Counted from the first letter of the stretch, positions 11,639 through 29,650 are shown. The stretch: DNA of 64,000 nt from Thermodesulfobacteriota bacterium (GCA_041753155.1 JBGSVA010000096.1:2036-66035); one strand, 5' to 3'. Numbers and translations are program-made. The notes: generated by a model from the sequence alone, not told the origin.

Positions 11639-11680
11639 GCGCCCGTAGCTCAGTTGGATAGAGCAACGGACTTCTAATCC
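11639..11680 (+). repeat. copy of tRNA-Arg(TCT) nt 1-42 (acceptor 5' strand through the anticodon loop): att-type junction between elements A and B
   Basis: gcgcccgtagctcagttggatagagcaacggacttctaatcc is identical to 24748-24789. Identity stops after the anticodon loop. Confidence 0.85.
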
Positions 11681-11833
11681 TGATACCCATACTTTCACAA
11701 CCCTCCATGAATACACGGTTTGCCTGTAATTGCCCGTGTTTAGGCCTCATTCGCTTTTACACCCTGTTACATCCTGAACGCGGCGTATTGAAGCCTACCA
11801 GTCACAGCATGGTCACAAATCGGTTATTGCAAG

Positions 11834-12475
11834 GTGTTGTATGAAGGACTCGAATCTGATATATTGTTGTATATTTCTCCTATGCCTCATAAAAAGATGC
11901 AATCAAAAGACGAACCGGCAACCCTAACGCAACAGCAAATTGGGAATTATCTTAGAAGGTTATATCAGAAAAAAAGAGATGAATTACTATCCACGGTTTC
12001 TTTGACCGAACGTAACGCAATCACTTTAAGGTTGGGACTTGGTGACGGTAACGAACGAACCTATGAAGCGGTTGGCAAATCGCTCGGCTGCACGAAAGAG
12101 GGAGCCCGGAAAATAACTGTCCGAGGCTTAAACAAGCTGGAACCTGAAATAAGATATAGATTAAAAAAGAGCCCCCATAAAGAATACAATCGCGGAGTGT
12201 TGGCAAATAGATACTTCCTTCCCCGCACTGAGCAGAAAGGAATCATCAAAGAAAATTTCTTCACCAAGTTATCAAAACGAGAGCAGAGGGTACTCGCATT
12301 ACGATATGGCCTCAACGGCAAACAGAACTATACGTATAAACAAATTGGGGAGCTCGAAGGAATCACAACAGCCGGAGCCGAAAAACTTATAAAGCGGACT
12401 TTAAAAAAACTAAATATCGATCCCCCTGGAAAGGTAGGGAAAAAAGATTTGACATTTAAGTTACCTCTAGTATAA
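11834..12475 (+). CDS. protein with two tandem sigma-70 region-4-like HTH domains
   Basis: LTERNAITLRLGLGDGNERTYEAVGKSLGCTKEGARKITVRGLNKL and SKREQRVLALRYGLNGKQNYTYKQIGELEGITTAGAEKLIKRTLKKL. The true start may be the ATG at 11882. Confidence 0.6.
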   Translation: MLYEGLESDILLYISPMPHKKMQSKDEPATLTQQQIGNYLRRLYQKKRDELLSTVSLTERNAITLRLGLGDGNERTYEAVGKSLGCTKEGARKITVRGLNKLEPEIRYRLKKSPHKEYNRGVLANRYFLPRTEQKGIIKENFFTKLSKREQRVLALRYGLNGKQNYTYKQIGELEGITTAGAEKLIKRTLKKLNIDPPGKVGKKDLTFKLPLV

Positions 12476-12518
12476 TGTTAGCAACGGGCAGGTTGCGCCC
12501 AATGAAATGATAATTGAC

Positions 12519-12554
12519 AGCCGGACAGGGATTTCTCCTTGCCCGGCTTTTTTG
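12519..12554 (+). terminator. rho-independent terminator (first of a tandem pair)
   Basis: GC-rich hairpin (gccggacaggg...ccttgcccggc) followed by tttttt. Confidence 0.6.
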
Positions 12555-12567
12555 TATCGAAAATTCA

Positions 12568-12604
12568 AGCCGCTGGCCTTTTCGGAGGTCGAGCGGCTTT
12601 TTTG
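12568..12604 (+). terminator. rho-independent terminator (second of a tandem pair)
   Basis: agccgctggcc ttttcgga ggtcgagcggct followed by tttttt. Confidence 0.6.
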
Positions 12605-12619
12605 TTTCCCCGAATCGTC

Positions 12620-12826
12620 ATGGAAAAGTTCTATTCGATAAATCAGGCGGCGGCGCTAGTGGGCGTTACCCCGCGAACAATCAGACATTGGATAGCACTC
12701 GGTGAATTGAAGTACATACAGATCGGCAGGCGGATTTATTTGACAGAGCAGCACTTCAAAAATTTAGTTGGTGAAACGACGGAAGTAAATATAAATGGGA
12801 ATGATATTGAATTAGAAGAAAAATAA
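12620..12826 (+). CDS. excisionase-family HTH (HTH_17) protein
   Basis: MEKFYSINQAAALVGVTPRTIRHWIALGELKYIQIGRRIYLTEQHF. The track ORF 12539.. extends upstream through the terminators, so the ATG at 12620 is preferred. Confidence 0.7.
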   Translation: MEKFYSINQAAALVGVTPRTIRHWIALGELKYIQIGRRIYLTEQHFKNLVGETTEVNINGNDIELEEK

Positions 12827-12878
12827 ATAGCGGAGGGCCGGGAGCGTGAACTCTCGACCCCCGTAATGAGGTACTAAA

Positions 12879-14198
12879 GTGTTTGGCAACACTGTTGAAA
12901 AGAATAAAGCGGGAGAATCCCCGCGTCAAACCGAAGCCCTTGGCTTTCTTGCCTTTCTAAATCAGGAACGGGACGGCAGTTATGCCCCGGCCCGCATGGT
13001 ACGAGAGAACCCGGCAAGGCAAATTCACCGATACTTTACCTACAAAAGTCAATACACCGGCAAGAGCACAGTCACATCAGCTCGGCGTAATTACTCCCGG
13101 CGACAGATCGTAACCCTCAGAATATGGAAAGGCGGCTGCGGAAAAGATAATATCGCTTTTGTTATTGGCTTGGCCCTTGAGCTAGACGGCATTGAGGGTG
13201 AAGCCCCGAAGTCCTTGTATGACGTGTATCTTCATCTTGATGACCATAAACTCCCGCTGCCAACATACATCAATGAAACCTCACCCGGCCATTTTCATTT
13301 AATTTGGTTGTTCCAAAAACCCCTGCCCTGGACACCCAAGAACGCTAGATATTGGGAATCACAGGAACGTCGGCTAGTGGAGGTGTTCGCTCCCTTCGGG
13401 CCGGATATAAATGCCTGTCTCAACCCGGTGCAATTTTATCAAAACTGGACACAGCTCAATCCGTACAATCACAAGCGGAAGTGTGACATTAACATACACC
13501 GCACCGGGCATAAAACGAGCATGAGCGCAATTCAACATGCACTTGATCGTGCAGGCGTGCTGAATGAATGGATCCCCCGCATTCCCGCAGAAACGCTAAT
13601 TCGTCAAGACTTAAGACAGCGAAAATATATCACAGAGACCTACACCCAATGGGGTAAGCGTTTAGGGCTCTCGAAGCGCACTATGGACCGCGTTATACCG
13701 AAGCTAATCGAGAACGGCGACCTTATCAAAGAGCAGACTAGGGGAAACAATAAGCCCGTTAAACGAACCTATTTTTATAAATCCATGCTCTACATTGAAC
13801 CCCGCACGGAATTTAACAACACTGAAAAAGTGTCACACGAAGTTACACCTATTCTCACCCCAAAAGTGCCAACTTCCTTTAAAGAACTACGTTATGCTAA
13901 GGAAACGGCCTCGGCTGCGCTTGCCAAGGCGTTCCGCAAACATGGGGCCAGAGAAAACTACCGAAATAAAACCGCTTACGCTGTAGGAAGATATGAAAAG
14001 TGGAAAAGTGGCGGAAAAATTTGCGCCGGGGAGCTGAAAAAACGCCTTATGAATGGCTTAATGCGCTCAGAAAACTATGGCGCTTCTGGGAATTTTACCG
14101 TCGCCGAGCTCGACCGCACAGTCCAGAACGTCCTGAAAAGTAAGTATATACAACCACTTAGCCGAAAGACCCTTGCCGAATGGGGTTTGTCATGCTGA
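12879..14198 (+). CDS. putative replication initiator of the AEP / plasmid 'Replicase' type with C-terminal wHTH
   Basis: VIGLALELDG ... LPLPTYINETSPGHFHLIWLFQKPLPW...ARYWESQERRLVEVFAPFGPDINACLNPVQ resembles the DxD / sGxH / NP pattern of AEP replicases. LGLSKRTMDRVIPKLIENGDLIKE is the HTH. Confidence 0.5.
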   Translation: MFGNTVEKNKAGESPRQTEALGFLAFLNQERDGSYAPARMVRENPARQIHRYFTYKSQYTGKSTVTSARRNYSRRQIVTLRIWKGGCGKDNIAFVIGLALELDGIEGEAPKSLYDVYLHLDDHKLPLPTYINETSPGHFHLIWLFQKPLPWTPKNARYWESQERRLVEVFAPFGPDINACLNPVQFYQNWTQLNPYNHKRKCDINIHRTGHKTSMSAIQHALDRAGVLNEWIPRIPAETLIRQDLRQRKYITETYTQWGKRLGLSKRTMDRVIPKLIENGDLIKEQTRGNNKPVKRTYFYKSMLYIEPRTEFNNTEKVSHEVTPILTPKVPTSFKELRYAKETASAALAKAFRKHGARENYRNKTAYAVGRYEKWKSGGKICAGELKKRLMNGLMRSENYGASGNFTVAELDRTVQNVLKSKYIQPLSRKTLAEWGLSC

Positions 14199-14707
14199 AA
14201 GCCCATGCCCTAGCCGCAAAGACCCCCTTCCGTACCCGCCTGGCTTCCGGCCTTCGCTTTGAAAGTGAAGTCGAGGCCCGCTTTAGCGAGCTCAGGTACA
14301 AGCTTCACAGGTGCGGAGGTGAGACATATCCCCGGAGGGTGAAAGACCAGCTCATCAAACTCGACGACTTCACGAGTTTATTTTTAAGATTCCAGCCGGA
14401 CTTCTATTGTGTGACAGCTCACAGTTCATTTTTTATCGAATGCAAGGGCCGCCGACAGGACTCAAGGTTTTACGCTTTCAATGTAGACGAGCTAGAGTTG
14501 CAAATGCAACTGACCCGGTTAGGGATTCGGATATTAGTCGTCTTTGAATCCGGCTCGGGCTTTAAAGCTCAGTGGCTTGATAAGCTGAGAATATTTAAAA
14601 CGTGCGACGGCTCGCCTTCCGGTAGCGGCGGACGGTTCGCGCTGATCTCCGAGAGGGATTTGCCGAACCTGGATTCGATTTTGTTTAGGAGAGTGCCGAA
14701 TGGCTGA
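14192..14707 (+). CDS. PD-(D/E)xK, VRR-NUC-like nuclease
   Basis: QPDFYCV...FFIECKGRRQD...ELELQMQLTRLGIRILVVF fits PD...ExK...Q...G. Overlaps both neighbouring genes. Confidence 0.45.
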   Translation: MLKAHALAAKTPFRTRLASGLRFESEVEARFSELRYKLHRCGGETYPRRVKDQLIKLDDFTSLFLRFQPDFYCVTAHSSFFIECKGRRQDSRFYAFNVDELELQMQLTRLGIRILVVFESGSGFKAQWLDKLRIFKTCDGSPSGSGGRFALISERDLPNLDSILFRRVPNG

Positions 14708-17700
14708 CATAAAAACGCTCACAACGAAAATCGTTGCCGACGTTTCGGGTTTAAAACAAATCGCCGCCGAATCGAAAAAGACCGCAAGCGAGATCGAGCG
14801 GTCGGGCAAGGGCGGCGTCAGCACATTCGGCATGATGAACAAAACGCTGGAGCAATCCGCAACAAAGCTCGGAATCCTGGGCGGATTAGTAGGTGGGCTC
14901 ACTGCATCGTTTTTAGGCTTCGCTCAGGGCGCACTGCGCGCTTTAGCATCGTTACCCGTGCAACTATTTAATTTACTCGTGGACTCTGGGCGGGAAGCTG
15001 AAACACAAATTCTGAGACTATCTACAATCCTTCAAATTCCGCAGGATAAAGCGGAAGAAGCGTTCGAGGCGATAAGAACGTTCGCACGGGATTTACCGCC
15101 GACAACCGACCAGGTGGTTGACGCCTTTCTCGCCTTAGAAAGCGTCTCGCTCGCCGGAACGGAAGAAAATTTGAAGCGCGTCATTTCCGCTAGTCTCGCA
15201 CTCAAGAGGCCGCTTGAAGATATTACAGCCGTTGTGCGCTCGATCGAGACTGAACCGCTCAGAAATCTTGGCATTCAGTTATCGCGGAATAAAGACATAG
15301 CCGATCTCACGTTCCGTGGTATACGCTTGCAGGTTGCTAACACGGACAAGGGAATCCGCGAGGGCCTATTGGAATTATTCAAAGTCGCATTTCCCGACGC
15401 GATTAAAAATTCTGAAGATATTTTCGATACGGCGTTGAGCGGCCTTAGAAGTTTAATTCAGGACATAGTAGTCGGTCCTGGGAGCCGATTAACCGCACAG
15501 CTTACCGAGGTTGTAAAAGAGACTAAGAAATGGGTCGAGGCGAACCAAGACTTGATAGAACAAAAGCTATCGCAATTTGTAGACGACTTTGCTAAGGCTA
15601 TTCCGAAGGCGATAGAGACATTAAAAGAGTTTGTGCAATTCTTAAAAGAGCTGAATGAAGCGGGACACCAGGCGGCGGGCGTGTTGGATTCAATCAGTGC
15701 GAAGTTTCAGAGCTTCGGAGAGACCTTCGGCAACACCTTAGAGGCGATTAATAAAAGCCCCGCGCTGGATACGGTATTCGGGACCCTGGAATCGTCGCTC
15801 GGCGCCCTTTTCGGGCCGACTGGCATTCTGAGAAAATTACAGGAGATATCAAAGCAATCGGGCTTCGCCGCTTTCTTATCCGAAGATGCCAATACATTCA
15901 GGGATTTTGCGGATTCCATGAAAGACGTTGAAAAGAACGCACAGGGCGCGGACAATGCGGTTGCTGCAGCGGCAGGCACGATTGACGCCTTCGCCGGAGG
16001 GAGCGGTCCGTTACCCTCCCTGGTAGAGCAAGCGGGGCGGGGAGCGGATAAAGCCAAGTCCCTCACAAATGAAATTCTCAATTTGCAGTTAGGTATAGAG
16101 AAAATCGGGAAGACGCCCGCGCAGATTATAGAACTTGAGGGAGCGTTCAAAGGTGTAGAGGCGCAGAGTAAAGCACTCGGCGATGAATGGACGCGGCTTT
16201 CTCTCATAAAAATTGGCGAAGAGGTTTTACAGTCGCTTAAAGATACGATAAAAGGGCTTCGGCTAGAGCAGGCGGAGATCATCGCAACCAAAGACGAGCT
16301 GATTGACCTCAAGGTTCGTTTAAAAGAAGTCGAGCTCGCACAGCGCGGCGTTGCGAGCGGTACGGCGGAGGCGACGGGGCAACTGACCGCATATAGGCGA
16401 GAGCTTGAGAAACTCGATTTTGTTAAAGAGATAGACGAAAAGCTAAGAAGCGGCGATCTTAATTTATTCGATCCGTTCACCAAAAGCTTTTTAAGATTCC
16501 AAGATCAGATACAGGACTTCGGAGATAAGGCGAAAGAGACTTTTGACTCACTTGACGACTTTATCGGAAACGTGGCCTCGAATATTGCTACTACATTCAG
16601 CGATCTAATTTACGGCACATTGACGGGCCAGTTTGATGATCTCAAGGACATATTCAAGAATGCGCTGCGCTCAATGCTCAGGACCTTCACGGACTTTATA
16701 GGCGCGGTTCTCGCAAACCCGATCAGGATTGCACTTGACGCGACGCTCGGCGGAAGCGGAGGGGGCGGAGCTGTCAACCTTGCGAATATCGGCAGTTCTA
16801 TAACTGGATTTTTCAGCGGTATAGGTGAGTCTTTCCGTTCTCTCGGGAGTCTCGTACTCGGAGAGTTTGCAGGCTTCGCCGGATTCGCGGGGACTCTCTC
16901 GGCGGCCCTGCCCGCAATCGGAACGATTCTTGCCGCCGCCGCTATCGCAATACCGTTGATAATCGACGCCTTTAAGAAAACGCCGCGGCTGGACATAGAT
17001 TTCGATTCGGTCAAAGAAGAAATAGGAAGGCGCGCCGCGTTCGTTTCCGAGTTCCTAAATGACGACTTCTTTGTAAACGAGATAGCTCAAATTTCAGTAA
17101 AGAGAAAAGCCGGGCTCGGGGTAGGCGGTGACGAGGCGATTAAAAACCTGATACAAGACCAGATCGAGGCGACCGTAGAAAGCGTCCAGGCGATACTAAA
17201 CAAACTTCCGAGCGAGCTCGCAGCGCGGCTTACCCAGGAGTTATTGAATACTCAGGTGGATATTGAAAGCGTAATCGGCGGGGAAAGGCTTTTAGAATTT
17301 GACGCGAAAGGAAAGGAAATTAAAAAGAAGTTTGAAGCGTTCATTAACGGTGAACTCCAGGCGAAATTCTTATTTGCAATACGGGACTTCTTTACCGGAG
17401 CCTTTGAAGCCCTGGGGGTACTTCCCGAAAACGCCCAGGCGTTTATAGATGCTGAGTTTGAGAGATTCAAAACAGCGGGCAGCCGGGAGGCACGGGCGGA
17501 GATAGGAAAGGAACTGTTAGAGGCGTTCGACACCTTCACAAATGCCTTCAATATCGTCTCGGGCAATGGCGTTGATTCGATTAACGCTGCGGTAAATTCC
17601 GTTCAGAACTTAGCGAGTACGCTCGGCTTCGACGCCGTTCCGTCATTAGAAGAACTCCGGGCGGAATTGGGACAGTTAATTGAGAGTGCGGAGATAGACC

Positions 17701-19196
17701 CGGAAACCGTACAGAGCTTTATTGATCTAAGGGCGGCGATAATACAACTCAGGACGGCGATACTAGATTCAATATCTTCCATAATCGGAAATATTCAATC
17801 CCTGAACTCGACCATTGCATCCTTCGGCGGAAGCGTGGTGGATCTGAGTGGATTCTTAAACCAGGCGGTAGGTGATATTCAAAACATACTCTCCCAGGGC
17901 GGCTTATCGATTGACGAGCAGGAATTTCTACTCGGCGAGCTCTCGGGCTTCGCTAACCAGCTATTAGCGGAAGAAAGGGCGGCCTTTGAATCTGCACAGG
18001 CGGCACAACAGGCGGCGAATGAAGCGCAACGCGCCGGAATACAGTCTCGCATTGATGCTTTAGGCAAAGAGAAAGAGAAAATAAACGAGACTTTCCGCGT
18101 CCGCATTGACGCTTTAAATGCAGAATTACAGCTCGCCCAGGACTTCCAAAGGCTTACCGAGTCGATAAAGAGTACATTGGATTCGATTATATTCAGCCCT
18201 GAATCAGTGTTGACCGGGGTTGAGCAGACAAATGCACTGCAGGGCCGAATCAACACTCTGCAGGGGCAACTTAGCACAACCAGCGACCCGCAGCTGCAAT
18301 TACAAATAGGTGAAGAACTCCGGGACACATTTGAGCGGTTATTCAGTTCAGCGGGGGACGCTTTCGGCGTGAACTCGCCCGAATTCGTTTCGATCTTCAA
18401 CCAGGTGACCGGAGGCTTGGAAAGTCTCGCCGACTTGACGGCTACACAAGGCCGGAGCGTAGAGGAAATCAGTGCCGAGATAGAAAGGCTTACAGCATTG
18501 AACGGTGAACGGTTAGACGCGATAGACGCTAAAATCGAGACTGCTCAGGATAGACTGGCCTCTATTGGACAGGCGACCGCAAACAACACCTTCCGGGCCT
18601 CCCAGGAGCTTCAATCCCTGTTTGAGTTTATTCGCTCCGAGTACATAAGGATTTTAGAAGAAAGGTTCGATCAGCTTTCCGAGATTAGCGACAGCGGCTT
18701 CCAGAATGAGATCGAGGCAGTGAGCGCCCTTATCGATGTATCGAAGGACCAGCTTTCTCAGATAGGCGAGCAGACAACCGTATTGCGGTCGATAGAATCC
18801 CTGCTCGGCAACCTTCAGGGCTTTCAGCATGGCACGGGCGGAGTAAAGGACTTCGGGCAGGGGACGCTTGCCTTACTTCACGGGCGCGAGAGTGTTCTAA
18901 CCGAGCGGCAGTTAAGCTCACTCGCACAATTTCCGATCTCACGACGTCGTGAAGATTTTTTACCAGGCTTTATGAATCGAGGCAGCGATTCTCACCTTGT
19001 GCATGATTTATCTGTCGATGTAAGCGGACAGATAAATATTAGCGGCAATATGAGTGATGAGAGTTTAACGAAATTTGCGGACAAGCTCGGCAAGAGCATT
19101 AGTAGGAATGTGAAGGATGAAGTCACGAAAGAAATAGAAACAGGCGGGCGGCTGCGAGTTGCGGTTCAGAACGCCGGGAAAAAAAGTTTAAATTAA
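14700..19196 (+). CDS. 1498-aa tape-measure-like protein: coiled-coil rich, central Gly-rich hydrophobic segments
   Basis: The N-terminal region resembles the TP901-type tape-measure domain (RTFARDLPPTTDQVVDAFLALESVSLAGTEENLKRVISASLAL). The central part reads GGSGGGGAVNLANIGSSITGFFSG...GFAGFAGTLSAALPAIGTILAAAAIAIPLIIDAF. The C-terminal part reads GFQHGTGGVKDFGQGTLALLHGRESVLTERQ. Confidence 0.6.
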   Translation: MADIKTLTTKIVADVSGLKQIAAESKKTASEIERSGKGGVSTFGMMNKTLEQSATKLGILGGLVGGLTASFLGFAQGALRALASLPVQLFNLLVDSGREAETQILRLSTILQIPQDKAEEAFEAIRTFARDLPPTTDQVVDAFLALESVSLAGTEENLKRVISASLALKRPLEDITAVVRSIETEPLRNLGIQLSRNKDIADLTFRGIRLQVANTDKGIREGLLELFKVAFPDAIKNSEDIFDTALSGLRSLIQDIVVGPGSRLTAQLTEVVKETKKWVEANQDLIEQKLSQFVDDFAKAIPKAIETLKEFVQFLKELNEAGHQAAGVLDSISAKFQSFGETFGNTLEAINKSPALDTVFGTLESSLGALFGPTGILRKLQEISKQSGFAAFLSEDANTFRDFADSMKDVEKNAQGADNAVAAAAGTIDAFAGGSGPLPSLVEQAGRGADKAKSLTNEILNLQLGIEKIGKTPAQIIELEGAFKGVEAQSKALGDEWTRLSLIKIGEEVLQSLKDTIKGLRLEQAEIIATKDELIDLKVRLKEVELAQRGVASGTAEATGQLTAYRRELEKLDFVKEIDEKLRSGDLNLFDPFTKSFLRFQDQIQDFGDKAKETFDSLDDFIGNVASNIATTFSDLIYGTLTGQFDDLKDIFKNALRSMLRTFTDFIGAVLANPIRIALDATLGGSGGGGAVNLANIGSSITGFFSGIGESFRSLGSLVLGEFAGFAGFAGTLSAALPAIGTILAAAAIAIPLIIDAFKKTPRLDIDFDSVKEEIGRRAAFVSEFLNDDFFVNEIAQISVKRKAGLGVGGDEAIKNLIQDQIEATVESVQAILNKLPSELAARLTQELLNTQVDIESVIGGERLLEFDAKGKEIKKKFEAFINGELQAKFLFAIRDFFTGAFEALGVLPENAQAFIDAEFERFKTAGSREARAEIGKELLEAFDTFTNAFNIVSGNGVDSINAAVNSVQNLASTLGFDAVPSLEELRAELGQLIESAEIDPETVQSFIDLRAAIIQLRTAILDSISSIIGNIQSLNSTIASFGGSVVDLSGFLNQAVGDIQNILSQGGLSIDEQEFLLGELSGFANQLLAEERAAFESAQAAQQAANEAQRAGIQSRIDALGKEKEKINETFRVRIDALNAELQLAQDFQRLTESIKSTLDSIIFSPESVLTGVEQTNALQGRINTLQGQLSTTSDPQLQLQIGEELRDTFERLFSSAGDAFGVNSPEFVSIFNQVTGGLESLADLTATQGRSVEEISAEIERLTALNGERLDAIDAKIETAQDRLASIGQATANNTFRASQELQSLFEFIRSEYIRILEERFDQLSEISDSGFQNEIEAVSALIDVSKDQLSQIGEQTTVLRSIESLLGNLQGFQHGTGGVKDFGQGTLALLHGRESVLTERQLSSLAQFPISRRREDFLPGFMNRGSDSHLVHDLSVDVSGQINISGNMSDESLTKFADKLGKSISRNVKDEVTKEIETGGRLRVAVQNAGKKSLN

Positions 19197-19213
19197 AAAT
19201 GTGGAGGTGTTAA

Positions 19214-19450
19214 ATGGCTAAGGAAATACCGAATATTTATAGGGCGATTAAGTGGTTGAGTATGTCTTATGAAGAAGCAAAAAAGCGGTATCGACTCCGG
19301 GAAGCGGCCGGGGAGATTACCGGCCCGCAGCGTCACCAGCTCGAACTTGAATTAGATTTTAATTTCAAGTCCGAAATCGATTCGATGATAGCAAGGGTCG
19401 ATAACGGCGAGCTCGACGGCACGGTCGAAGCGGAGGCGTCAAATGGATAA
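19214..19450 (+). CDS. hypothetical protein (78 aa)
   Basis: ORF with GGAGG RBS, tightly packed after the large gene. Confidence 0.5.
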   Translation: MAKEIPNIYRAIKWLSMSYEEAKKRYRLREAAGEITGPQRHQLELELDFNFKSEIDSMIARVDNGELDGTVEAEASNG

Positions 19451-20186: not shown

Positions 20187-20326
20187 TGGTTGCTAGGTGG
20201 AACGGGCTCGCGTTGCAATTCTCTTTCATCTTCCTTTCGGCGCGGGCCTTGTTTCACTTTGAACTATAAATATTGCAATAACTGTGTGATATGACACAAT
20301 ATATAATATAGGGAGATTTATCAATT

Positions 20327-21299: not shown

Positions 21300-21556
21300 T
21301 AAAAGTGGCAGATGAAACGAAATAAGCAATGCATATTTGTCTCTGAGTGGCACATGGGCGGCATAGGTGAGGCAGACCCGATAGAGAGTTTAGAGAAATT
21401 CATGACATTTACACGCCACTTTGAGAATTATTGTGTTATGCAGTAATGACGGGCACTTATGAAGATAGCTAGTTTACATATTGTACATTATCGGACATAA
21501 TTTCACCATTAAAATTTATAGGAAAGACACAAGATGTTGTGGTTAAGGAGCTAAGT

Positions 21557-21784
21557 ATGCATGTAAAGAAGATTGTCATTAAGGGCCACCGTCCGTATTA
21601 TGCGATAGCCGAGGCTTTCAGGGTAAAAGGCGACCCGAGCCCTAAAACGCGAATATTGGCTAACCTGGGGCATACCAAGGACCCTGATCGAGCGTATTCT
21701 AAGGCCGTCGCTCAATATCTCCGGGCTGCCGAGCGAGTATCGCGCCTTGAGGTAGCAATGGCCGGACTCGCGGGGAAGGCTTAA
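21557..21784 (+). CDS. small basic protein (75 aa) with a KGxxYYaiaEsFR..G....R.LanLG motif, as in the N-termini of some IS1634-type transposases
   Basis: AAGGAG lies 6 nt before the ATG at 21557 (the track starts at the GTG at 21539). HVKKIVIKGHRPYYAIAEAFRVKGDPSPKTRILANLGH. Confidence 0.45.
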   Translation: MHVKKIVIKGHRPYYAIAEAFRVKGDPSPKTRILANLGHTKDPDRAYSKAVAQYLRAAERVSRLEVAMAGLAGKA

Positions 21785-21981
21785 CAGCGTGGCTAAACGA
21801 ACGCACAGGGGCATATAAAGAGCATTCCCGAACTTATCAGGGCGGCTGCGCTAGTGGCTTACGGGATCGAGCTCAGCGATCTCTACGTCGAGCTTATAAT
21901 GATCCGGCAAATGTCATTCAGGGACGCTGTGAGGGAGGCCAGGAGCCACGATAGCGGGTACGCGGACGTGAGGGCGGTGCA

Positions 21982-22851
21982 TTGAGAAAGCGAAGGAAGG
22001 TCACCTGGGGGCTTATTCAGGAATCGTATGCAGTTCTATCCGAGCAGAATCCTATGACGCTCCGGCAGTTGTTTTACCAGCTCGTAACCCGGCACATCAT
22101 ACCGAATGAGCATAGTGCTTATCAGAGGCTATCCCGTGTCATGACGGATGCAAGGGACAGCGGCGATATTCCCTATGAATGGATAGTAGACCGCTCGAAG
22201 GTAGAGCGCGTTCCGAATGCATGGAGTGACCTAGAGGGTTATATGGATACTGTTACTAAGGCTTATAATAGAGACCGTTGGAAGGATCAGCCTTATCACA
22301 TAGAACTATGGCTCGAAAAGGACACACTCACCGGTTCGGTTGAGGGCCTATGCAGACAATACGGGATACCGCTAAGAGCTTATAGGGGCTTCAGCTCGAC
22401 TACTAAGAAGTGGGAAATGGCGGGGTTATTCAACAGCGTTAAGAAGCCCGTAGTAATATTTTATGTAGGAGATCACGACCCTAGCGGCCAGGACATTGAA
22501 AGGGACTTGCAATCATCCCTTCGTGGTTATGGGGCTTACAATTTCCAGATTATTCGCATTGCCATTTTCGGAGATGACATAGCGGAGTTTAAACTTCCGC
22601 CGTTGCGAATCAAGGACAAAGACCCCCGGAGTAGGAAGTTTAAATCCACTTATGGGACGGAGACGATTGAAGCCGACGCCCTGCCGCCTAATGAACTAAG
22701 ACAAAGATTGCAAGATCATCTCCTTAACCTGATAGACCGTGACGCCTGGGGGAAGTCGAAAGAAATAGAAAAGGTTGAAAAGCAATCAATCATAGATATA
22801 GTCGGCAGGTGGAAGGAGCTCAATACTCAAACTGATACTAGTATCAGTTAA
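21982..22851 (+). CDS. Spo11/Topo VI subunit A-like protein (5Y-CAP + Toprim only), 'Topo mini-A'-like
   Basis: MTLRQLFYQLV (candidate catalytic Tyr in a wHTH). HIELWLEKDTLTG (Toprim Glu, compare VEKdavf). VIFYVGDHDPSGQDIERDL (DxDPxG). 289 aa, TTG start. Confidence 0.6.
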   Translation: MRKRRKVTWGLIQESYAVLSEQNPMTLRQLFYQLVTRHIIPNEHSAYQRLSRVMTDARDSGDIPYEWIVDRSKVERVPNAWSDLEGYMDTVTKAYNRDRWKDQPYHIELWLEKDTLTGSVEGLCRQYGIPLRAYRGFSSTTKKWEMAGLFNSVKKPVVIFYVGDHDPSGQDIERDLQSSLRGYGAYNFQIIRIAIFGDDIAEFKLPPLRIKDKDPRSRKFKSTYGTETIEADALPPNELRQRLQDHLLNLIDRDAWGKSKEIEKVEKQSIIDIVGRWKELNTQTDTSIS

Positions 22852-22854
22852 GCG

Positions 22855-23034
22855 TTACTTCCCCTTCCCGCTGTACTTGGAAAGGATATGATCTATGCCC
22901 TCGACTAGCAGGTCATTAATGAACTTATCCTGTTGCACGGCTAGTAATTTGAGCTTCTTACTCTTATCCTGGGGAATCCGGGCGGCTATTTGAACGAGGT
23001 CTTTATCAGACTTGGGTTTCTTTTTTGGAGTCAT
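22855..23034 (-). CDS. ribbon-helix-helix (CopG/Arc-like) repressor, 59 aa
   Basis: KDLVQIAARIPQDKSKKLKLLAVQQDKFINDLLVEGIDHIL has the beta-alpha-alpha pattern. Start taken at the ATG at 23034, just outside the operator. Confidence 0.55.
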   Translation of the reverse strand: MTPKKKPKSDKDLVQIAARIPQDKSKKLKLLAVQQDKFINDLLVEGIDHILSKYSGKGK

Positions 23035-23059
23035 GTTAACACTATGCCATAAAACGATT

Positions 23060-23101
23060 ATTCTAACAAGTATTGACATATGAATGATAGTTTGTTAGAA
23101 T
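23060..23101. promoter_or_regulatory. operator/promoter: perfect 10-bp inverted repeat enclosing a sigma70-type promoter
   Basis: ATTCTAACAA-N22-TTGTTAGAAT. Inside it are TTGACA (23073-23078), a 17-nt spacer and TAGAAT (23096-23101), pointing at the gene at 23134. Confidence 0.6.
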
Positions 23102-23133
23102 GTTAACAAATCCAATTAAGGAGGGAGTAAGAA

Positions 23134-23595
23134 ATGAGCACATATTTAATAAAGGTAGAGAATGAGAATGGGAGTACCTGGGGTTACGCGGAGCGGGCTA
23201 AGACGATTGTAGATGCCTTATCGAATTATATTGACGGTAAGGACCAAGTGATCCCAACGGTTAAGAGCGTTCAATTTGCAACCGAGCATGAGACTTATCG
23301 GGATGTTATACACTTTGTCAGTTGCCGCCTCGATAATCTATTCACAGAGTTAAAGGGCTTAAACGAACGGGGGCGGGATCTAGCGGGGAATATCTCACCA
23401 CATGAAGATAGGCTCGTTGCGGCAGAGACCCAATGGGAAATTTACCATTTAGCGCAAGGTATGGAGAGCATACTCGGCCAAGTGAAGGATATGTGTCATC
23501 TGCATCATGCATTCAGTGAAGGACGTATAGACCTGACTTTAGAAGAAGATCAAGAGTACCGTCAGAGAATCGTAAAAAAAAGAGTTAACGGTTAA
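23134..23595 (+). CDS. hypothetical protein (153 aa)
   Basis: ORF with GGAGGGAG RBS, followed by a strong terminator. Confidence 0.55.
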   Translation: MSTYLIKVENENGSTWGYAERAKTIVDALSNYIDGKDQVIPTVKSVQFATEHETYRDVIHFVSCRLDNLFTELKGLNERGRDLAGNISPHEDRLVAAETQWEIYHLAQGMESILGQVKDMCHLHHAFSEGRIDLTLEEDQEYRQRIVKKRVNG

Positions 23596-23598
23596 CAA

Positions 23599-23628
23599 CC
23601 CCGGGGGGCTTCGGCCCCCCTTTTTTTT
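23599..23628 (+). terminator. rho-independent terminator
   Basis: ccccggggggc ttcg gcccccc followed by tttttttt. Confidence 0.8.
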
Positions 23629-23662
23629 GCCCCTGTCATTGGCTATTATGAATGGCAGGGAT

Positions 23663-24727
23663 ATGGGCGTCTATAAGCGTGTAGATAGATGGTATTTAGA
23701 TTACTACCTGCCGAACGGTCAAAGGGTGAGGGAAAGGGTCACGATTAAGGGTGTAGACCCTTCCCGGATAACCAAGAAGCTCGCCCTGGCCTCCTTATCG
23801 ATCAGAAAAGCCGAGCTCGCCGAAGGTAAATTCGATATTGTCCAGACTAGAAAGCAGGTCCTGTTTGATAAGGCGGTAAAGTCCTTCATTGAAGATTACT
23901 CGAAGATCCATAAGAAATCCTGGACGCGGGATGTTACATCTTCACGAGCTTTACAGAGTTATTTCGGCGGCAAGAGAATAAGCTCGATCAATACCTGGCT
24001 CGTGAATAAGTACCGCTCAAGGCGTCTTAATGAAGTGGCGAAGGCTACTATTAACCGGGAGCTCGCCTTTCTAAAGACTATGCTTAACTTCGCCGTTCAA
24101 AGGAACTGGCTATCTACTAATCCGCTCAAGGGTTATAAGCGCTTCCCCGAGCCCCCGAAAACAAGGATAGTTACTAAAGAAGAATTCAGGGCGGTCTATG
24201 GCGAAGCTTCCGACTTTTTGAAGCCCATACTTTTAATGGCCGTGAATACGGGTATGAGGCGCGGCGAGATATTCGATCTTAAGTGGAGTAATGTAAACCT
24301 GGCCGAAGGCTATCTCTTGGTCGAAGATTCAAAGAATAACGAGTCGAGGCATATCACTATCAATAAGCAGTTGAATGAGGCCCTAAAGTCGGTAAAATAC
24401 CATGCCTCCGGGGATTACGTATTCAGTCACGGAGGGAGCCGGGTAAAGACCTTTAAAACGGCCTTTAACGCTGCGATAAGGCGGGCTGGGGTTAAGCCGT
24501 TCAGGTTTCACGACCTGAGACATACCTTTGCGAGCAATCTTGTTATGAAGGGCGTCGATCTCGTGACCGTAGGGGAGTTACTAGGACACAAGAGCCTGTC
24601 AATGACAAGGCGCTATTCACACCCGAGCCCGGAACATAAAAAACAGGCGGTTGAGAAACTTGATTTCGATATTTCAGTCACAAAAACAGACAAAGATGAA
24701 ACCGAGATCAAAACGAAGCGCTCATAA
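23663..24727 (+). CDS. tyrosine site-specific integrase (element B)
   Basis: [22 protein letters not shown]... and [40 protein letters not shown]. Paralogous to the integrase at 10504. Ends 20 nt before the tRNA. Confidence 0.9.
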
Positions 24728-24747
24728 CCTATTGTAATCATTATAAT

Positions 24748-24824
<77 letters not shown>

Positions 24825-24835
24825 ATTTTCCCTAC

Positions 24836-25021
24836 ATTGACCTTGCGAAATATTTAAAAGTGAAAAAACGTACTGCATATCACATCGTGGCCACCCTGAA
24901 TATTCCTCACTACAGGGTCGGCAGGCTGATCAGGTTCAAGCTGAGTGAGGTTGAAGATTGGATGAACAAAAATAAGGCCGAGCAGTTGATTGTGCCTTAC
25001 GATAAACTCGAAAGTGTGTAA
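24836..25021 (+). pseudogene. excisionase-type HTH gene lacking a normal start codon (abuts the tRNA)
   Basis: In-frame reading ...[47 protein letters not shown]...ESV*. The frame stays open back into the tRNA with no ATG upstream of the HTH. Confidence 0.45.
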
Positions 25022-25045
25022 TACTAACGATTAAATCCGCAGACA

Positions 25046-25070
25046 GGGGGCAATTAGCCCCCTCTTTTTT
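25046..25070 (+). terminator. rho-independent terminator
   Basis: gggggc aatta gccccc followed by tctttttt. Confidence 0.7.
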
Positions 25071-25230
25071 ACCAAAGAATACTTATATCAGCAGTTTCAA
25101 AACTTACCCATGATTTCCTAGCACTCATATGAAAATTAAAACAGAACAACTAAGGTCATTAGCACAACTCAGAAAAGCTTACCTAGACGCAGACTCTCAA
25201 AAAGAGATTAATCAAATTCTTGAATAAACA

Positions 25231-25458
25231 ATGAAAACAACACAAGAAATCCTGGCCCAAAATGGCATCAACTGGACATTGCACACTAACGAAAACAGTA
25301 ATCATGAAATAAAGGAAGATGAGATGCAACAACTAACTACAGAAGAAATAGTCAAAGCACTAGACGACTATCTGACAAAAAAGAATATAATACGGGAAAA
25401 TACACCCAAACAAATAACAGTCAAACAGGCCTCAGAACTATATAACATGCCTCTATAG
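25231..25458 (+). CDS. small ORF (75 aa) whose C-terminus looks like the start of a truncated HTH_17 domain
   Basis: ...ITVKQASELYNMPL followed by TAG. Possibly another Xis-like remnant. Confidence 0.3.
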   Translation: MKTTQEILAQNGINWTLHTNENSNHEIKEDEMQQLTTEEIVKALDDYLTKKNIIRENTPKQITVKQASELYNMPL

Positions 25459-25548
25459 AAGGGAGTATGATCCAACAATTTTTAGGGGTTGGGCTGAAAT
25501 ATTATATACTTTAAAAAAGGATCGACTTCAGCGATAAGCAAATAGATT

Positions 25549-27117
25549 ATGAACAACCGCAAAACGAATGAAACATGGAAATATCATAATATCACCAAGC
25601 ACCCTGGATTACCCCCACATTACTTAGATTGGAAGAACCAACCCATTCCTTTTAAAATATATACTAATCTAAAGGGGATTGAGATTCCAAAAGATTTACC
25701 GTATTCAAATGCATCTGCCTTAAATTCAATATCAACACTCCTTACTGATACAGAAAGTGAATACATCCCGGATCTCAGTACCCTGGGGCGTTTGATTTAT
25801 CTCTCTGCAGGTATAACAAAGAAAGTTAAGTATCCTGGAGGTGATCTTTATTTCCGTGCTGCGGCATGTACAGGGGCTCTATACCACATAGATTTGTATC
25901 TTGTAGTGGGTGACATAAAAGGGCTTGACGCGGGTGTTTATCATTTCGGACCCGATGACTTTTCATTAAGAAGACTACGTAAAGGAGATTTCAGAGGTTT
26001 ACTTATAGAGGCAACAGCTCATGAGGAAAGAATAGTAAGGGCTCCAGTCATAATTGTCTGTACGAGTACATTCTGGCGTAATGCCTGGAAATACCAATCA
26101 CGTACATACCGGCATACATTTTGGGACAACGGCACGCTTCTGGCAAATCTTCTAGCTGCAGCTTCAGCATACAGGATTCCTGCCAAGATTGTCGTGGGGT
26201 TTGTGGATTTAAAAGTAAATCAACTACTCGGTCTTGAGACCGACAAAGAAGTAGCTGTTAGTCTTGTAACAGTTGGGAATTTGAAAAAGCCTGTTTCCGG
26301 CAAAATTGGTGAACTGGAAGAAATAAAATATGAATCAATGCCACTCTCCGAAAATGAAATTGATTATCCTCGCATAAAAGCAATGCATCTAGCTTCTTCA
26401 CTCATAAATGAAGACGAGGTAAAGGAATGGAGGATTGCAACCATAGAATCTACAGAAATCGAGTCATGTGGCAAACACTTTCCCCTTGAGTTAGATGATG
26501 ATGAAGAAATAGACCAAGTCTCAAATACCATAGAGAAAACAATTCTAAAACGTGGTTCAACGCGTCAATTCGACCGTCTTTCGATTACATTCAGACAACT
26601 CTCCAACTTGTTATATAGTTCTACTCGTGGCATACCTGCAGACTTCCTTTATACTCCAGGAACAACACTGAATGATATATACCTGATTGTAAATTATGTT
26701 GAGGGAATACCTCAAGGATCCTATTTTTATAACCGGGATAATAATGTACTTGAGCTACTAGAGGAAGGTGATTTTAGAAGGAAGGCGGGACAACTAGGTC
26801 TTGGCCAGGACTTACCACGGGATTCGAGCGTGGACGTTTTCTTTCTATCAAATTTAAATAGAGTTCTGGAGAAATTTGGAAATCGCGGTTACAGAGCCGT
26901 TCAGCTCGAAGCCGGTATAATTGGAGGGAAGCTTTATCTGGGAGCCTACGGACTTGGCCTTGGAGCAAGTGGCCTTACATTTTTCGACGATGATGTAACC
27001 AGGTTTTTCTCACCACATGCTCAGAGTAAAAGTACTATGTTTCTTATTGCGCTAGGCAAATCTGTAAAAAAGAAGTCACGAAGTCAACTGACTAAAATAG
27101 TGACAGACCCAATTTAA
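25549..27117 (+). CDS. double-domain SagB/ThcOx-type nitroreductase-family protein (522 aa)
   Basis: Two nitroreductase-like halves: RAAACTGALYHIDLY...WRNAWKYQSRTYRHTFWDNG, and RGSTRQFD...GYRAVQLEAGIIGGKLYLGAYGLGLGASGLTFFDD. Confidence 0.6.
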   Translation: MNNRKTNETWKYHNITKHPGLPPHYLDWKNQPIPFKIYTNLKGIEIPKDLPYSNASALNSISTLLTDTESEYIPDLSTLGRLIYLSAGITKKVKYPGGDLYFRAAACTGALYHIDLYLVVGDIKGLDAGVYHFGPDDFSLRRLRKGDFRGLLIEATAHEERIVRAPVIIVCTSTFWRNAWKYQSRTYRHTFWDNGTLLANLLAAASAYRIPAKIVVGFVDLKVNQLLGLETDKEVAVSLVTVGNLKKPVSGKIGELEEIKYESMPLSENEIDYPRIKAMHLASSLINEDEVKEWRIATIESTEIESCGKHFPLELDDDEEIDQVSNTIEKTILKRGSTRQFDRLSITFRQLSNLLYSSTRGIPADFLYTPGTTLNDIYLIVNYVEGIPQGSYFYNRDNNVLELLEEGDFRRKAGQLGLGQDLPRDSSVDVFFLSNLNRVLEKFGNRGYRAVQLEAGIIGGKLYLGAYGLGLGASGLTFFDDDVTRFFSPHAQSKSTMFLIALGKSVKKKSRSQLTKIVTDPI

Positions 27118-27300
27118 TTATTTTCCTATTAGTTCTCCCTTCTAAAATCTCATTCCAAGTATTTAGATGTGTTGGGGAAAAAAGGGGACACAACATCATC
27201 CAAGAGGATGATGATATGATTTGTCTTCTCCGCGAAACTAGATCCTTATTAAATGAGAAAATCCTGTATGGTTGTAGCAAATAACCAGGAGGATATTTCG

Positions 27301-27490
27301 ATGAAAAGAAGCACGTTTTCAGATTAGCTAATCGCGTCTATTATGCGTCAGGAAGATGATGGTGTTCCAGTAGAGGGGTGTACAAAGATTGGGATCAGCG
27401 AGCAAACCTATAATAGATAACGAAATGAGGTTAGTAGGTTAGTCCCATCAGGGACGAAGTTTCTAGAACAACTGAAGGCTAGGATATATG
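27301..27490 (+). pseudogene. frameshifted IS3-family orfA (HTH_Tnp_1) remnant
   Basis: MKRSTFSD*, then in other frames ...GVPVEGCTKIGISEQTYNR*RNE... (compare GISEQTFYRW of IS3 OrfA). Confidence 0.55.
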
Positions 27491-27580
27491 CATCAAAAAA
27501 GCTATGCCAATCCTTCTTTAGACTGGGAAAGGCTGCGGGAGTTGTCCCTCTTTTTTACCAAAGAATACCCAAAGAATCTT

Positions 27581-27639
27581 CCATAATTATTCCTTCCTTA
27601 CAGAATCAATAAACCATATGGAATAGATGGAAATCGTTT
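27581..27639 (+). repeat. 59-bp repeat, copy 1 (copy 2 at 29486-29544); each copy precedes a tRNA 3' fragment
   Basis: ccataattatt...accatatggaatagatggaaatcgttt. The last 27 nt are identical between copies, and about 80 percent of the whole. Confidence 0.7.
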
Positions 27640-27696
27640 AATGTAGATGAGCTATAACAAGTTCAATAATCCCAAGAAGTTACAAAAATCCACTAA

Positions 27697-27744
27697 AGAG
27701 GACAGAAAATCCTCGTGTCGGCGGTCGGGTTCCGTCTCCGGGTA
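27697..27744 (+). pseudogene. degenerate tRNA-Phe(GAA)-like 3' fragment
   Basis: agaggacagaaaatcctcgtgtcggcggtcgggttccgtctccgggta, compared with the canonical tRNA-Phe ...GAAAATCCCCGTGTCCTTGGTTCGATTCCGAGTCCGGGCA. The T-loop is degenerate. Confidence 0.4.
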
Positions 27745-27790
27745 TTCTTTTTGTAGTGATTACTGACTATTACAGTTCACCCTATTTATG

Positions 27791-27921
27791 TGACCTCCCC
27801 CGGAGAACCGGACAAGTGAGTAGTAGATAAATCTGGCAAAATACTTTAGTTAACAAAGAGGTTATTTGCCATGAAGAAGTCGAAGTTAACCGAGGAACAG
27901 ATAGCATTTTATTTAAGGTAG
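27791..27921 (+). mobile_element. IS3-family (IS407/IS2-like) left end: terminal inverted repeat plus a 16-codon orfA stub
   Basis: TGACCTCCCCCGGAGAACCGG at 27791 resembles the IS407-group IRL. MKKSKLTEEQIAFYLR* at 27871-27921. Confidence 0.5.
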
Positions 27922-28310
27922 GTTACAACTGAGTCTGTAAGAACACAGGAAACGAGATAGTTAAATAAGTCTTGTGAGAGCCTATTTCTAAAATGAGGAG
28001 ATAATTATTAGTCCGGATTGAAGAGTCCCGCTACAGGCTAGTATAGGCTTCTGAGACTTAACATACTTTGATATGGTCGGTGGTATGAAATGTATAATAA
28101 ATATTCAGATGATATATAAATAATATACACGTCTATAACAATTGGCCACAAACACGAGCTGTATTGAAGCTTAACATCCATAAAGCATTCAATATTATTT
28201 TATGGTACACAGTTTGCAGCTATAGCAGTGCAATTAACTCTAACAGGGGGTTAAAAAAATGAAGTTTAAGGTTATCGTTCTGATTCCGGGACTCGCGCGC
28301 GGAGATTTAG

Positions 28311-28820
28311 ATGAGCGATAATATCAAGAAGATAATTAATGCCAACTCGCAATATGCGGAGAATTTCGGTGAAAAAACTAAGCTCAGCATGCCACCCTCA
28401 AGAAGGCTTGCTATTTTAACGTGTATGGACGCGCGCTTGGACCCCGCAAAGTTTGCGGGTCTTCAGGAGGGCGACGCACATGTAATAAGAAACGCAGGGG
28501 GAAGAGCAAGTGACGATGCCATAAGATCGCTCATCATATCGAGTCAAATTTTGGGAACAAACGAGTGGCTCGTTATCCATCATTCGGATTGCGGTATGGA
28601 AACTTTTACGAATGAAAAATTTTCTAAAGATCTCGAGAACACCTTTGAGTCCAAAGAGGGTTATTCTATTAACTGGCTTACCATATCCGACAGAGTCGAA
28701 AGTGTGAAGGAAGATGTGAAGCAGATAAGGAATCATCCTCTGGTCTCCAGTGATGTAAGAATTTCGGGCTATATTTTCGACGTTAAGAATGGGAAGCTCA
28801 CAGAGGTTGTCAAAGGTTAA
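28311..28820 (+). CDS. beta-class carbonic anhydrase
   Basis: [13 protein letters not shown]...[10 protein letters not shown]...VIHHSDCGM (Cys-Asp-Arg / His-x-x-Cys zinc site). Confidence 0.8.
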
Positions 28821-28859
28821 ATATAGTGCGCCGAACGGAATGTTATTGCCGATCAGATA

Positions 28860-29342
28860 CAGGTTTGAATTGAATGGAATCTTAGGACTGGCACCTGGTA
28901 TGCTGGATGAGGGTGTGAGGGAGGTGCTGGATATAGTAATTGATACTTCATTGCCGGCATTGCCGGCGGCAAGGCCGGTGCCAGTAATGGATCAGCTCAA
29001 GGAGTGATAAGGTCTGCCGGGCGATTCGCTGTGATAACGGCCCGGAGCTGACTTCTCAGAGTTTAATTGACTGGTTCCGGGATCACAGCATCGAGATTTT
29101 CTATATCCAGCCGGGTAAGCCGGTGCAGAATGCTTATATTAAACGTTTCAACAGAACATTTCGTGAGTAGGTATTAGATGCTTACTTATTCGATGACCTT
29201 GAGCAGGCACGGAACATAGCAAATGACTGGCTCAGGGCTTATAATGAACAGCGTCCCCATGAGTCTCTTGGCGGGCTGCCGCCAAGCCTCTTCAGGGAAA
29301 AAGTAACTGCTAAAAATTCTACTTTAGAACTGTCTACTTAAA
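28860..29342 (+). pseudogene. IS3-family orfB (DDE/rve) 3' remnant with frameshift and stop
   Basis: ...VLDIVIDTSLPALPAARPVPVMDQL..., then IRCDNGPELTSQSLIDWFRDHSIEIFYIQPGKPVQNAYIKRFNRTFRE*VLDAYLFDDLEQARNIANDWLRAYNEQRPHESLGGLPP. Confidence 0.7.
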
Positions 29343-29485
29343 TGGGGAAATTACAGTACATGAATTCAAAGACAAAGACAGTATAGTTTTTGGAGTAATA
29401 ATTTGATAGAAGATTATTGGTTTGTTTTGTAATAACAGCCATCCTCTATCAATGATATGCATTCTAAGAATATTCTAAGAACCAT

Positions 29486-29544
29486 CCATAATTATTGTCA
29501 CCATACGGAATCTATAGACCATATGGAATAGATGGAAATCGTTT
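29486..29544 (+). repeat. 59-bp repeat, copy 2
   Basis: See 27581-27639. Confidence 0.7.
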
Positions 29545-29603
29545 TCTCTAGGTAACATATGAATATCTCAATGGTGCAGGAGCGTTATAGAATTCCCCTT
29601 AAT

Positions 29604-29650
29604 CGGACTTCTAATCCGTAGGTCGGGGGTTCGAATCCCTCCGGGCGCGC
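29604..29650 (+). repeat. copy of tRNA-Arg(TCT) nt 29-75 (anticodon stem to acceptor end): att-type right boundary of island C
   Basis: cggacttctaatccgtaggtcgggggttcgaatccctccgggcgcgc is identical to 24776-24822. Confidence 0.85.

Follow-up and report, generated by a model that had tools for sequence, protein, structure and literature searches.

In a stretch of 64,000 nt from a Thermodesulfobacteriota bacterium (GCA_041753155.1, JBGSVA010000096.1:2036-66035), hereafter called the window, a gene for tRNA-Arg(TCT) is accompanied by a copy of its 5' half upstream and a copy of its 3' half downstream. We consider it likely that this gene is a hot spot of integration which has been entered from both sides through one and the same anticodon stem-loop core. 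Hereby element B, upstream of the gene, replaces the 5' half, island C, downstream of it, replaces the 3' half, and element A, upstream of B, most likely acted like B at an earlier time. The evidence consists of the tRNA copies and their boundaries, the families of the two tyrosine integrases IntA and IntB, the conserved layout of IntB relatives with 5' fragments at their far ends, and a related genome in which island C is missing. All features are listed in Table 1.

The tRNA-Arg gene and its partial copies

The intact gene is the single tRNA gene found in the window by ARAGORN and Rfam. An earlier note on this DNA, made from the sequence alone, had described three pieces of the gene in the same orientation, namely nt 1-42, the intact copy and nt 29-75. 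Exact matching and shuffling proved these positions correct to the base. On the 5' side, an exact block of 46 nt (11635-11680 = 24744-24789) comprises nt 1-42 of the tRNA preceded by TAAT, four nucleotides of upstream identity that the note had also seen, and it departs from the tRNA sequence at nt 43. The parts of the tRNA present in only one of the fragments, nt 1-28 (repeated exactly at 11639-11666) and nt 43-75 (repeated exactly at 29618-29650), found no match in 100 dinucleotide-preserving shuffles, even with three mismatches allowed. No further copies of either tRNA half occur within the window beyond these fragments and a degenerate stretch at approximately 27698-27750. The earlier note had asked whether the 42-nt string could be a generic dispersed repeat; this was rejected, as the 42-nt and the 47-nt strings are confined to the positions given here.

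The two partial copies overlap, as had been claimed, only in the anticodon stem-loop. The shared 14-mer cggacttctaatcc stands at 11667, 24776 and 29604, each time on the plus strand, and is the sole part common to all tRNA copies. It corresponds to linear nt 29-42 and is made up of 4 bp of stem, the 7-nt anticodon loop CTTCTAA and 3 bp of stem. With the 5' block stopping at nt 42 and the 3' block beginning at nt 29, the site of integration belongs to the anticodon-loop type of sublocation.

Neither half of the working gene appears to be in its original state. The CCA end is encoded in the working gene at 24822-24824 (reading GCGCG-CCA), and the native 3' end has none, neither in the displaced fragment of the window (GCGCGC followed by TCC at 29651-29653) nor in the related genome L132 (GCGCGC followed by ACT at 11993-11995). 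The present 3' half is thus not native, and a 3' half supplied by an element alters whether the tRNA needs CCA addition. The working gene would have nt 1-42 from element B and nt 43-77, including the encoded CCA, from island C. The block at 29604-29650 is the attR of island C, attached to the native chromosomal flank, and the block at 11635-11680 is the attL of element B, its 5' half probably having been supplied by element A. GC content is 37-52% across the first 30 kb (45-52% in element B, 37-42% in island C) as compared to approximately 54% in the core genes beyond, with steps at 24.8 kb and approximately 30 kb.

Following what is established for tyrosine recombinases, the 7-nt loop CTTCTAA would be the overlap region and the inverted arms of the stem would be the core-binding sites, which would put the positions of cleavage in the loop. 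The attP of element B would carry tRNA nt 1-42 directly downstream of the integrase gene. Recombination in the loop would leave the prior 5' half behind at 11639-11680 as attL and would set B's own 5' half, with the integrase gene ahead of it, before the retained 3' half, thereby forming attR and the working gene. Island C would have entered in the classical way with an attP bearing nt 29-77, which would have given the working gene its 3' half with the encoded CCA and pushed the native 3' half to 29604-29650, where it is still joined to its native flank. Later, C would have lost its integrase; it is now probably a composite of two decayed remnants. Element A would most likely have entered before B in the same manner, and the half left at 11639 would then be that of A. 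Both kinds of element would have to match the loop and would differ in the tRNA half that their attP carries. A nearly palindromic stem-loop would allow attP to hold the core in either orientation relative to the integrase gene and the arms, and a lineage could in this way pass from the 3' to the 5' mode.

Relatives of IntB and a genome lacking island C

The stop codon of intB lies 20 nt ahead of tRNA nt 1 on the same strand. This arrangement is conserved: all seven IntB relatives at 58-67% identity with readable context (among them L001, L003 and L004 from genomes, L105 from a metagenome, and L132 and L133) have a same-strand tRNA gene directly downstream, which is tRNA-Arg(TCT) in all of these named loci but L133, where it is tRNA-Leu(TAA). 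A 5' fragment at the far end was present in three out of three relatives with enough upstream sequence. In L003 a fragment of nt 1-42 is found approximately 4 kb upstream, immediately after a native tRNA-Pro gene. L004 has the same fragment with one substitution, of the universally conserved A14 to G, and L132 has a fragment of nt 1-43, also with one substitution, 11.7 kb upstream. Substitutions in the displaced copies, such as A14 to G in L004, fit copies that are out of use. The fragments of L003 and L004 stop at nt 42 like that of the window, despite a different anticodon stem (GGCC.../...GGCC-type as compared to GGAC.../...GTCC-type). In all three loci the regenerated tRNA adjoins native sequence (tRNA-His or native flank), and a 3' fragment is missing. 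When empty sites of the L003/L004 type were looked for, only L003 and L004 themselves came up. From the sequence, element B appears to regenerate the 5' half of the tRNA, and homologous elements bounded alike in L003, L004 and L132 lend indirect support to its gain or loss as a unit. Between the ends of B, four 8-mers were shared as compared to 2.7 expected in shuffles, that is, no excess of arm-type repeats was found; a GTCACA motif is a weak lead only.

L132 carries a related locus and provides the empty site for island C. Its core genes share 74-80% nucleotide identity with the window at 54.9-63.9 kb, and its tRNA-Arg is identical to that of the window over the 75 nt called by ARAGORN in L132. 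This tRNA directly joins the homologue of window positions 29651-29700 and of the 88-nt units beyond them, at 84.5% and 82.5% identity, respectively, the former value being for the fragment and flank of the window (29604-29700) compared with the tRNA and flank of L132. No homologue of 24833-29603 is present in the L132 locus. The segment 24825-29603 is therefore an insertion bounded exactly by a tRNA 3'-half copy, and the classical geometry which the earlier note had assigned to C is borne out. The element in L132 and element B share only the integrase (65% amino acid identity) and a few genes, which fits independent insertions of related elements. The fragments of the window are perfect (42/42 and 47/47) and the hosts differ at 20-26% of core positions, so the insertions are much younger than the split of the hosts. 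In the region of L132 at 11071-11917, an open reading frame (ORF) of 250 aa lies between the integrase gene and the tRNA, and a short reading frame just before the tRNA resembles the C-terminal tail of an integrase (MNIDTYLDTKVTNLKGNSNLTS). This suggests that an earlier integrase gene in L132 has been largely replaced.

The related loci bear on another way to read the window. A single composite insert of 17.9 kb (11681-29603) might have split the native gene once, with a complete tRNA-Arg gene as internal cargo and the 14-nt core as direct repeats. The core indeed flanks the whole block in direct orientation, and joining both fragments would restore an intact gene. However, IntB-type elements stand alone in L003, L004 and L132, where the regenerated tRNA rests on native sequence without a 3' fragment, and L132 has a B-like element without C. 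Moreover, B and C differ in GC content, and C holds an older decayed attR of its own (see below). Movement of the block as one unit is possible today, yet it would be a consequence of accretion and not its origin. We consider a composite origin improbable and retain serial entry of B and C from opposite sides.

More distant relatives show what the layout of IntB departs from. Integrases at 25-39% identity to IntB mostly have the opposite layout, with the tRNA on the other strand and its 3' end facing the stop codon of the integrase gene; the target is tRNA-Ala in more than 10 loci and tRNA-Arg(TCT) in L002. The same holds for more distant relatives of IntA and IntB together, in which an opposite-strand tRNA lies approximately 25 nt past the stop codon. 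In neighbour-joining trees over 335 columns the IntB clade has a bootstrap value of 100, and L002, the classical locus at tRNA-Arg, is its sister with a value of 83. In the IntB clade the loop is about as far from the stop codon as in the classical relatives. Judged by these layouts, the norm of the family is an integrase gene followed by the reverse-complemented 3' part of a tRNA, and that of the IntB clade an integrase gene followed by the 5' part.

Two further loci were noticed among the relatives. L126 (134-929) is an exception, in that its integrase (25% identity) has a tRNA-Ala(CGC) behind it on the same strand; either a third lineage has the 5'-side layout or the arrangement is coincidental. 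In L133 (1-11194) the IntB relative (64% identity) lies 12 nt upstream of the same-strand tRNA-Leu(TAA), and a DndB-E phosphorothioation cluster and an SNF2 helicase are encoded behind the integrase. The L133 layout implies that the 5'-side mode is not confined to tRNA-Arg and that such elements carry defence cargo.

No relatives of IntA or IntB were found in viral contigs, and exact-protein look-ups of IntA, IntB and one core protein gave no identical record. The nearest annotated phage integrases, those of epsilon34, SEN22, APSE and Aaphi23, are 28-31% identical to IntB. Tentatively, and with slightly less than even confidence, we propose that IntB stands for a sizeable undescribed clade in Thermodesulfobacteriota- and Dadabacteria-type bacteria, in which the tRNA segment of attP is inverted as compared to both the sister lineages and the epsilon34/DLP12 group. 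IntB-like proteins number roughly 1,600. The anticodon stem-loop, a near-palindrome, would serve as core in either orientation, and the 5' half of the tRNA would be replaced together with the upstream region including the promoter. The switch would have occurred at least twice, in the IntB clade and in IntA, and the working tRNA would be built wholly by elements and depend on B for its expression. A strong terminator is located at 23603-23620, just upstream of intB, and none was found between intB and the tRNA. Transcription of the tRNA is likely either to read through from intB or to start at a promoter that escaped recognition.

Element A, island C and the right flank

Element A is placed on the 5' side by its position. 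The stop codon of intA lies 55 nt ahead of the 5' fragment on the same strand, and the spacer between them (GAAATATTAG...TAAT) is similar to those found in the IntB clade. The earlier note had described both A and B as opposite to the classical geometry, and the two integrases as paralogous. For B, the layout of the IntB clade and the far-end 5' fragments uphold the former claim; for A it stands on position, and the relatives of IntA are classical. The latter claim was overstated: both integrases belong to PF00589, but they share 36% identity in the catalytic domain only and fall into two separate, well-supported subfamilies. IntA is placed in its own subfamily with a bootstrap value of 100, and none of 100 replicates groups it with the IntB clade. 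Its nearest relatives, P0002 and P0014, are on contigs that are too short or frameshifted to show an attachment site, and genome_contigs contained no close IntA relatives. If A works like B, the switch of polarity arose at least twice.

Several observations weigh against two-sided entry as we propose it. All IntA relatives with readable context (39-46% identity) are classical, at tRNA-Met, tRNA-Thr or tRNA-Ala, and the contig of the closest relative ends 83 nt past the stop codon with no tRNA in view. No tRNA fragment marking the left end of A was found in 1-11600 of the window. No integrase was found in 24825-29603 by tblastn with IntA and IntB as queries, by Pfam scan or in the ORF list, so that the mobility of C is historical or reliant on an integrase acting in trans. 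No sigma-70-like promoter above background was found between intB and the tRNA. Finally, A and B are joined across a 46-nt repeat, on a contig of 71,328 nt that is probably metagenomic, and a misjoin at this point is conceivable.

The first two of these points favour the view that B is the sole 5'-side element. In that case the half at 11639 would be the native one, and A would have arrived otherwise, for example as a classical remnant of a different site now lost, or within a larger island to which the Hhe gene at the left of the window also belongs. The separation of IntA from the IntB clade in the bootstrap replicates and the absence of a tRNA fragment over 11.6 kb agree with this, as does the finding that the 182 nt upstream of the 5' fragment in L132 are not integrase-like. 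On the other hand, the intA stop codon precedes the fragment on the same strand just as that of intB precedes the tRNA, the spacer is of the IntB-clade kind, and in every relative of both subfamilies the tRNA segment of the attachment site lies approximately 10-160 nt from the stop codon. Moreover, identity with the working gene runs 4 nt upstream of the tRNA, and the DNA to the left is of a low-GC mobile type and not native flank. We therefore regard an exclusive role of B as unlikely and keep A as most likely a 5'-side element.

The order of A, B, tRNA and C could also be present in no single cell, if strain variants had been joined by the assembler through the 42-77 nt of shared tRNA sequence. 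The contig appears to come from an uncultured Thermodesulfobacteriota-like organism and its junctions are short exact repeats. However, all junctions (fragment to B, intB to tRNA, tRNA to C, and C to fragment and flank) have the form expected biologically, the joints of fragment to B, of intB to tRNA and of tRNA to flank recur in the independent assemblies of L003, L004 and L132, and repeats of 46-47 nt are below the largest k-mers of common assemblers. Such an artefact is highly improbable, and we treat the tandem order of the elements as real.

The ORF at the left end of the window, which matches the model of the anti-phage helicase-nuclease Hhe, is embedded in low-GC DNA further left than the A module and may belong to the cargo of this element. 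Element A may reach across this gene past the window, or its end may have been deleted.

Lacking an integrase, island C is handled here as a remnant or as an element resembling a cis-mobilizable element (CIME). It contains a partial copy of its own right arm, followed by a degenerate tRNA 3'-half copy. Aligned with the tRNA alone, the latter scores weakly (26 as compared to a shuffle mean of 16, standard deviation 2.8); it is credible because it is collinear with the arm. The region 27561-27750 would accordingly be what is left of the attR of an older remnant. Two exact copies of the 23-nt string CCCTCTTTTTTACCAAAGAATAC are present, at 25060 and, 2.5 kb further on, at 27546; the regions concerned are 25045-25082 and 27531-27568. 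A terminator-like hairpin follows the excisionase-like ORF of C, and the downstream copy of CCCTCTTTTTTACCAAAGAATAC stands at the start of the internal arm copy. Probably C consists of two related tandem remnants, C1 and C2. The degenerate 3'-half copy, the missing integrase of C and the repetition, at 29815, 29903 and 29990, of the final 12-15 nt of the tRNA had escaped the earlier note.

This repetition belongs to an array of diverged units of approximately 88 nt on the right flank. Each unit opens with the 3'-terminal 12-15 nt of the tRNA (CTCCGGGCGCGC, in one case with CCA) and continues with flank-like sequence. A unit of this kind also follows the tRNA in L132 (11981-12084), and no Rfam family corresponds to the units. 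They could be stacked scars of attachment sites left by elements using a 3'-end site, or could have arisen by unequal crossing-over.

From 30.2 kb onward the window contains ordinary chromosomal genes, including those for nitrate/nitrite assimilation and molybdenum cofactor synthesis. Synteny was searched with the first core gene (30192-31631); the best matches, at 52-66% identity, come from many phyla and have no tRNA-Arg nearby. Exact DNA searches with the left end of the window in genome_contigs and with the right junction in metagenome_contigs gave no match. L132 lacks, at that place, a counterpart of approximately 24.8 kb (window approximately 30100-54940, compared with L132 12085-12340), and in it the homologue of window position 54943 onward comes nearly immediately after the repeat units. 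This block holds the nitrate/nitrite assimilation and molybdenum cofactor cluster and a low-GC patch at 51-55 kb, and a weak partial 88-nt unit is found at its right edge (55075-55109, nhmmer E 0.025). Either the block is one more insertion at this hot spot, next to the tRNA, or L132 has undergone a deletion.

Table 1. Features of the window around the tRNA-Arg(TCT) gene (positions counted from the first nucleotide of the window)
Feature	Position	Strand	Basis or remark
ORF of >1778 aa running off the window	2-5335	-	PADLOC Hhe defence helicase-nuclease model, E 0, 1740 bits
Element A, right-hand module	7155-11638	+	Pfam scans
Two HTH_17 excisionase-like genes, element A	7155-7403, 7500-7745		
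PrimPol/zinc-ribbon primase-helicase, element A	7708-10098		
IntA, tyrosine integrase	10504-11583	+	PF00589
Displaced 5' fragment, tRNA nt 1-42 with TAAT upstream	11635-11680 (fragment proper 11639-11680)	+	exact repeat
Element B, integrative element, 13,067 bp	11681-24747	+	between 5' fragment and intact tRNA
Sigma-70 region-4 protein, element B	11834-12475		Pfam/PHROGs scans
Excisionase-like HTH protein, element B	12539-12826		Pfam/PHROGs scans
Replication-initiator-like protein, element B	12879-14198		Pfam/PHROGs scans
1498-aa protein, element B	14700-19196		Pfam/PHROGs scans
Topoisomerase-like protein, phrog_6247, element B	21982-22851		Pfam/PHROGs scans
IntB, tyrosine integrase, right end of element B	23627-24727	+	PF00589, E 3.5e-34
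Intact tRNA-Arg(TCT)	24748-24824	+	ARAGORN; Rfam RF00005, 75.7 bits
Island C, 4.8-kb integrase-less remnant in classical position	24825-29603	+	Pfam scan, ORF list
Excisionase-like 53-aa ORF adjoining tRNA, island C	24860-25021		
Nitroreductase-family protein, island C	25549-27117		
Internal copy of the right arm of C	27561-27667 (~110 nt)	+	~77% identity to the arm immediately preceding the 3' fragment (29466-29572)
Degenerate tRNA 3'-half copy	~27698-27750	+	same spacing after the arm copy as the true fragment
Beta-carbonic anhydrase, island C	28311-28820		
Displaced 3' fragment, tRNA nt 29-75	29604-29650	+	exact 47-nt identity with 24776-24822
Array of diverged ~88-nt units, four clear copies	29639-30077 (units at 29639, 29815, 29903, 29990)	+	nhmmer E 2e-21 to 3e-18

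Comparison with known systems

An anticodon-loop, or symmetric, class of sublocation within tRNA genes was reportedly distinguished by Williams in 2002. The closest annotated phage relative of IntB is the integrase of epsilon34 (29% identity). The annotated attP of this phage consists of the 3' 44 nt of argU, begins at CTTCTAAG and lies 17 nt past the integrase stop codon on the opposite strand; its depositors describe it as a 'region of similarity to 3' end of Salmonella argU'. The epsilon34/DLP12/P22 group (29-31% identical to IntB) resembles the IntB elements in having a tyrosine integrase, an attP right after the stop codon, tRNA-Arg(UCU) as target and a block of identity starting from the loop CTTCTAA. 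It differs from them in carrying the 3' 44 nt on the opposite strand, the classical mode, whereas the IntB type carries nt 1-42 on the same strand.

The concept of accretion arrays and CIMEs beside integrative elements comes from the literature on ICESt1 of Streptococcus thermophilus. By analogy, island C may be compared to a CIME: it is flanked by core copies of the att type, has an excisionase-like gene and no integrase, and stands in tandem with integrase-bearing elements. Unlike in CIME-type arrays, the arms of C are unrelated to those of A and B. The 88-nt units recall E. coli tyrT, downstream of which 178-bp repeats contain the 3' end of the tRNA. Both sets of repeats are in tandem and each unit opens with the last nucleotides of the tRNA, while unit length and organism differ.

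In the Islander database (Hudson, Lau and Williams 2015, PMC4383910), 159 islands have a 5' fragment and 3760 a 3' fragment (3919 in total), in line with the earlier remark that regeneration of the 5' half is rarer than that of the 3' half. The Islander filters described there explicitly permit a 5' fragment upstream of the gene, and tandem arrays are recognised when every member has its own integrase and fragment (PMC4383910). Element B is like the Islander 5' islands, which have an intact tDNA with an upstream 5' fragment in the same orientation, an internal tyrosine integrase and a size of 2-200 kb (PMC4383910). Island C likewise has the downstream 3' fragment in the same orientation as the intact gene that is expected of a 3'-type island. 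As far as the passages considered here go, the paper offers counts and no specific integrase clade of this polarity at the anticodon loop (PMC4383910); unlike in these counts, insertions of the 5' and the 3' type here share one 14-nt core.

Islands at arg2A of Klebsiella pneumoniae with clade I.d integrases integrate at the 5' end of a tRNA-Arg gene, and strains 616 and A708 have two islands, one at each end of the same tDNA (bioRxiv 10.1101/2020.11.02.365908). In Klebsiella the 5' site comprises the acceptor stem, D-stem and D-loop, and the 3' sites are the T-loop or extend from the anticodon to CCA, whereas in the window the anticodon stem-loop is used on both sides. The Klebsiella hosts and integrases are unrelated to those of the window at the level tested.

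The 5' mode and the occupancy of both sides of a tRNA gene thus already have precedents, and the general picture of tRNA genes as hot spots of integration is unchanged. What is added here is one anticodon-loop core used from both sides, a clade in which the 5' mode is the rule, and a tRNA made of two element-borne halves. The window offers a clean, sequence-resolved case of the minority 5'-half mode beside the majority mode on the same 14-nt core. It raises the testable question of what sets the polarity of attP on a symmetric tRNA stem-loop, and a second one, how a tRNA gene is expressed whose native upstream region gave way to an integrase gene. Island finders that expect 3' fragments only would miss A and B and set the island borders wrongly.

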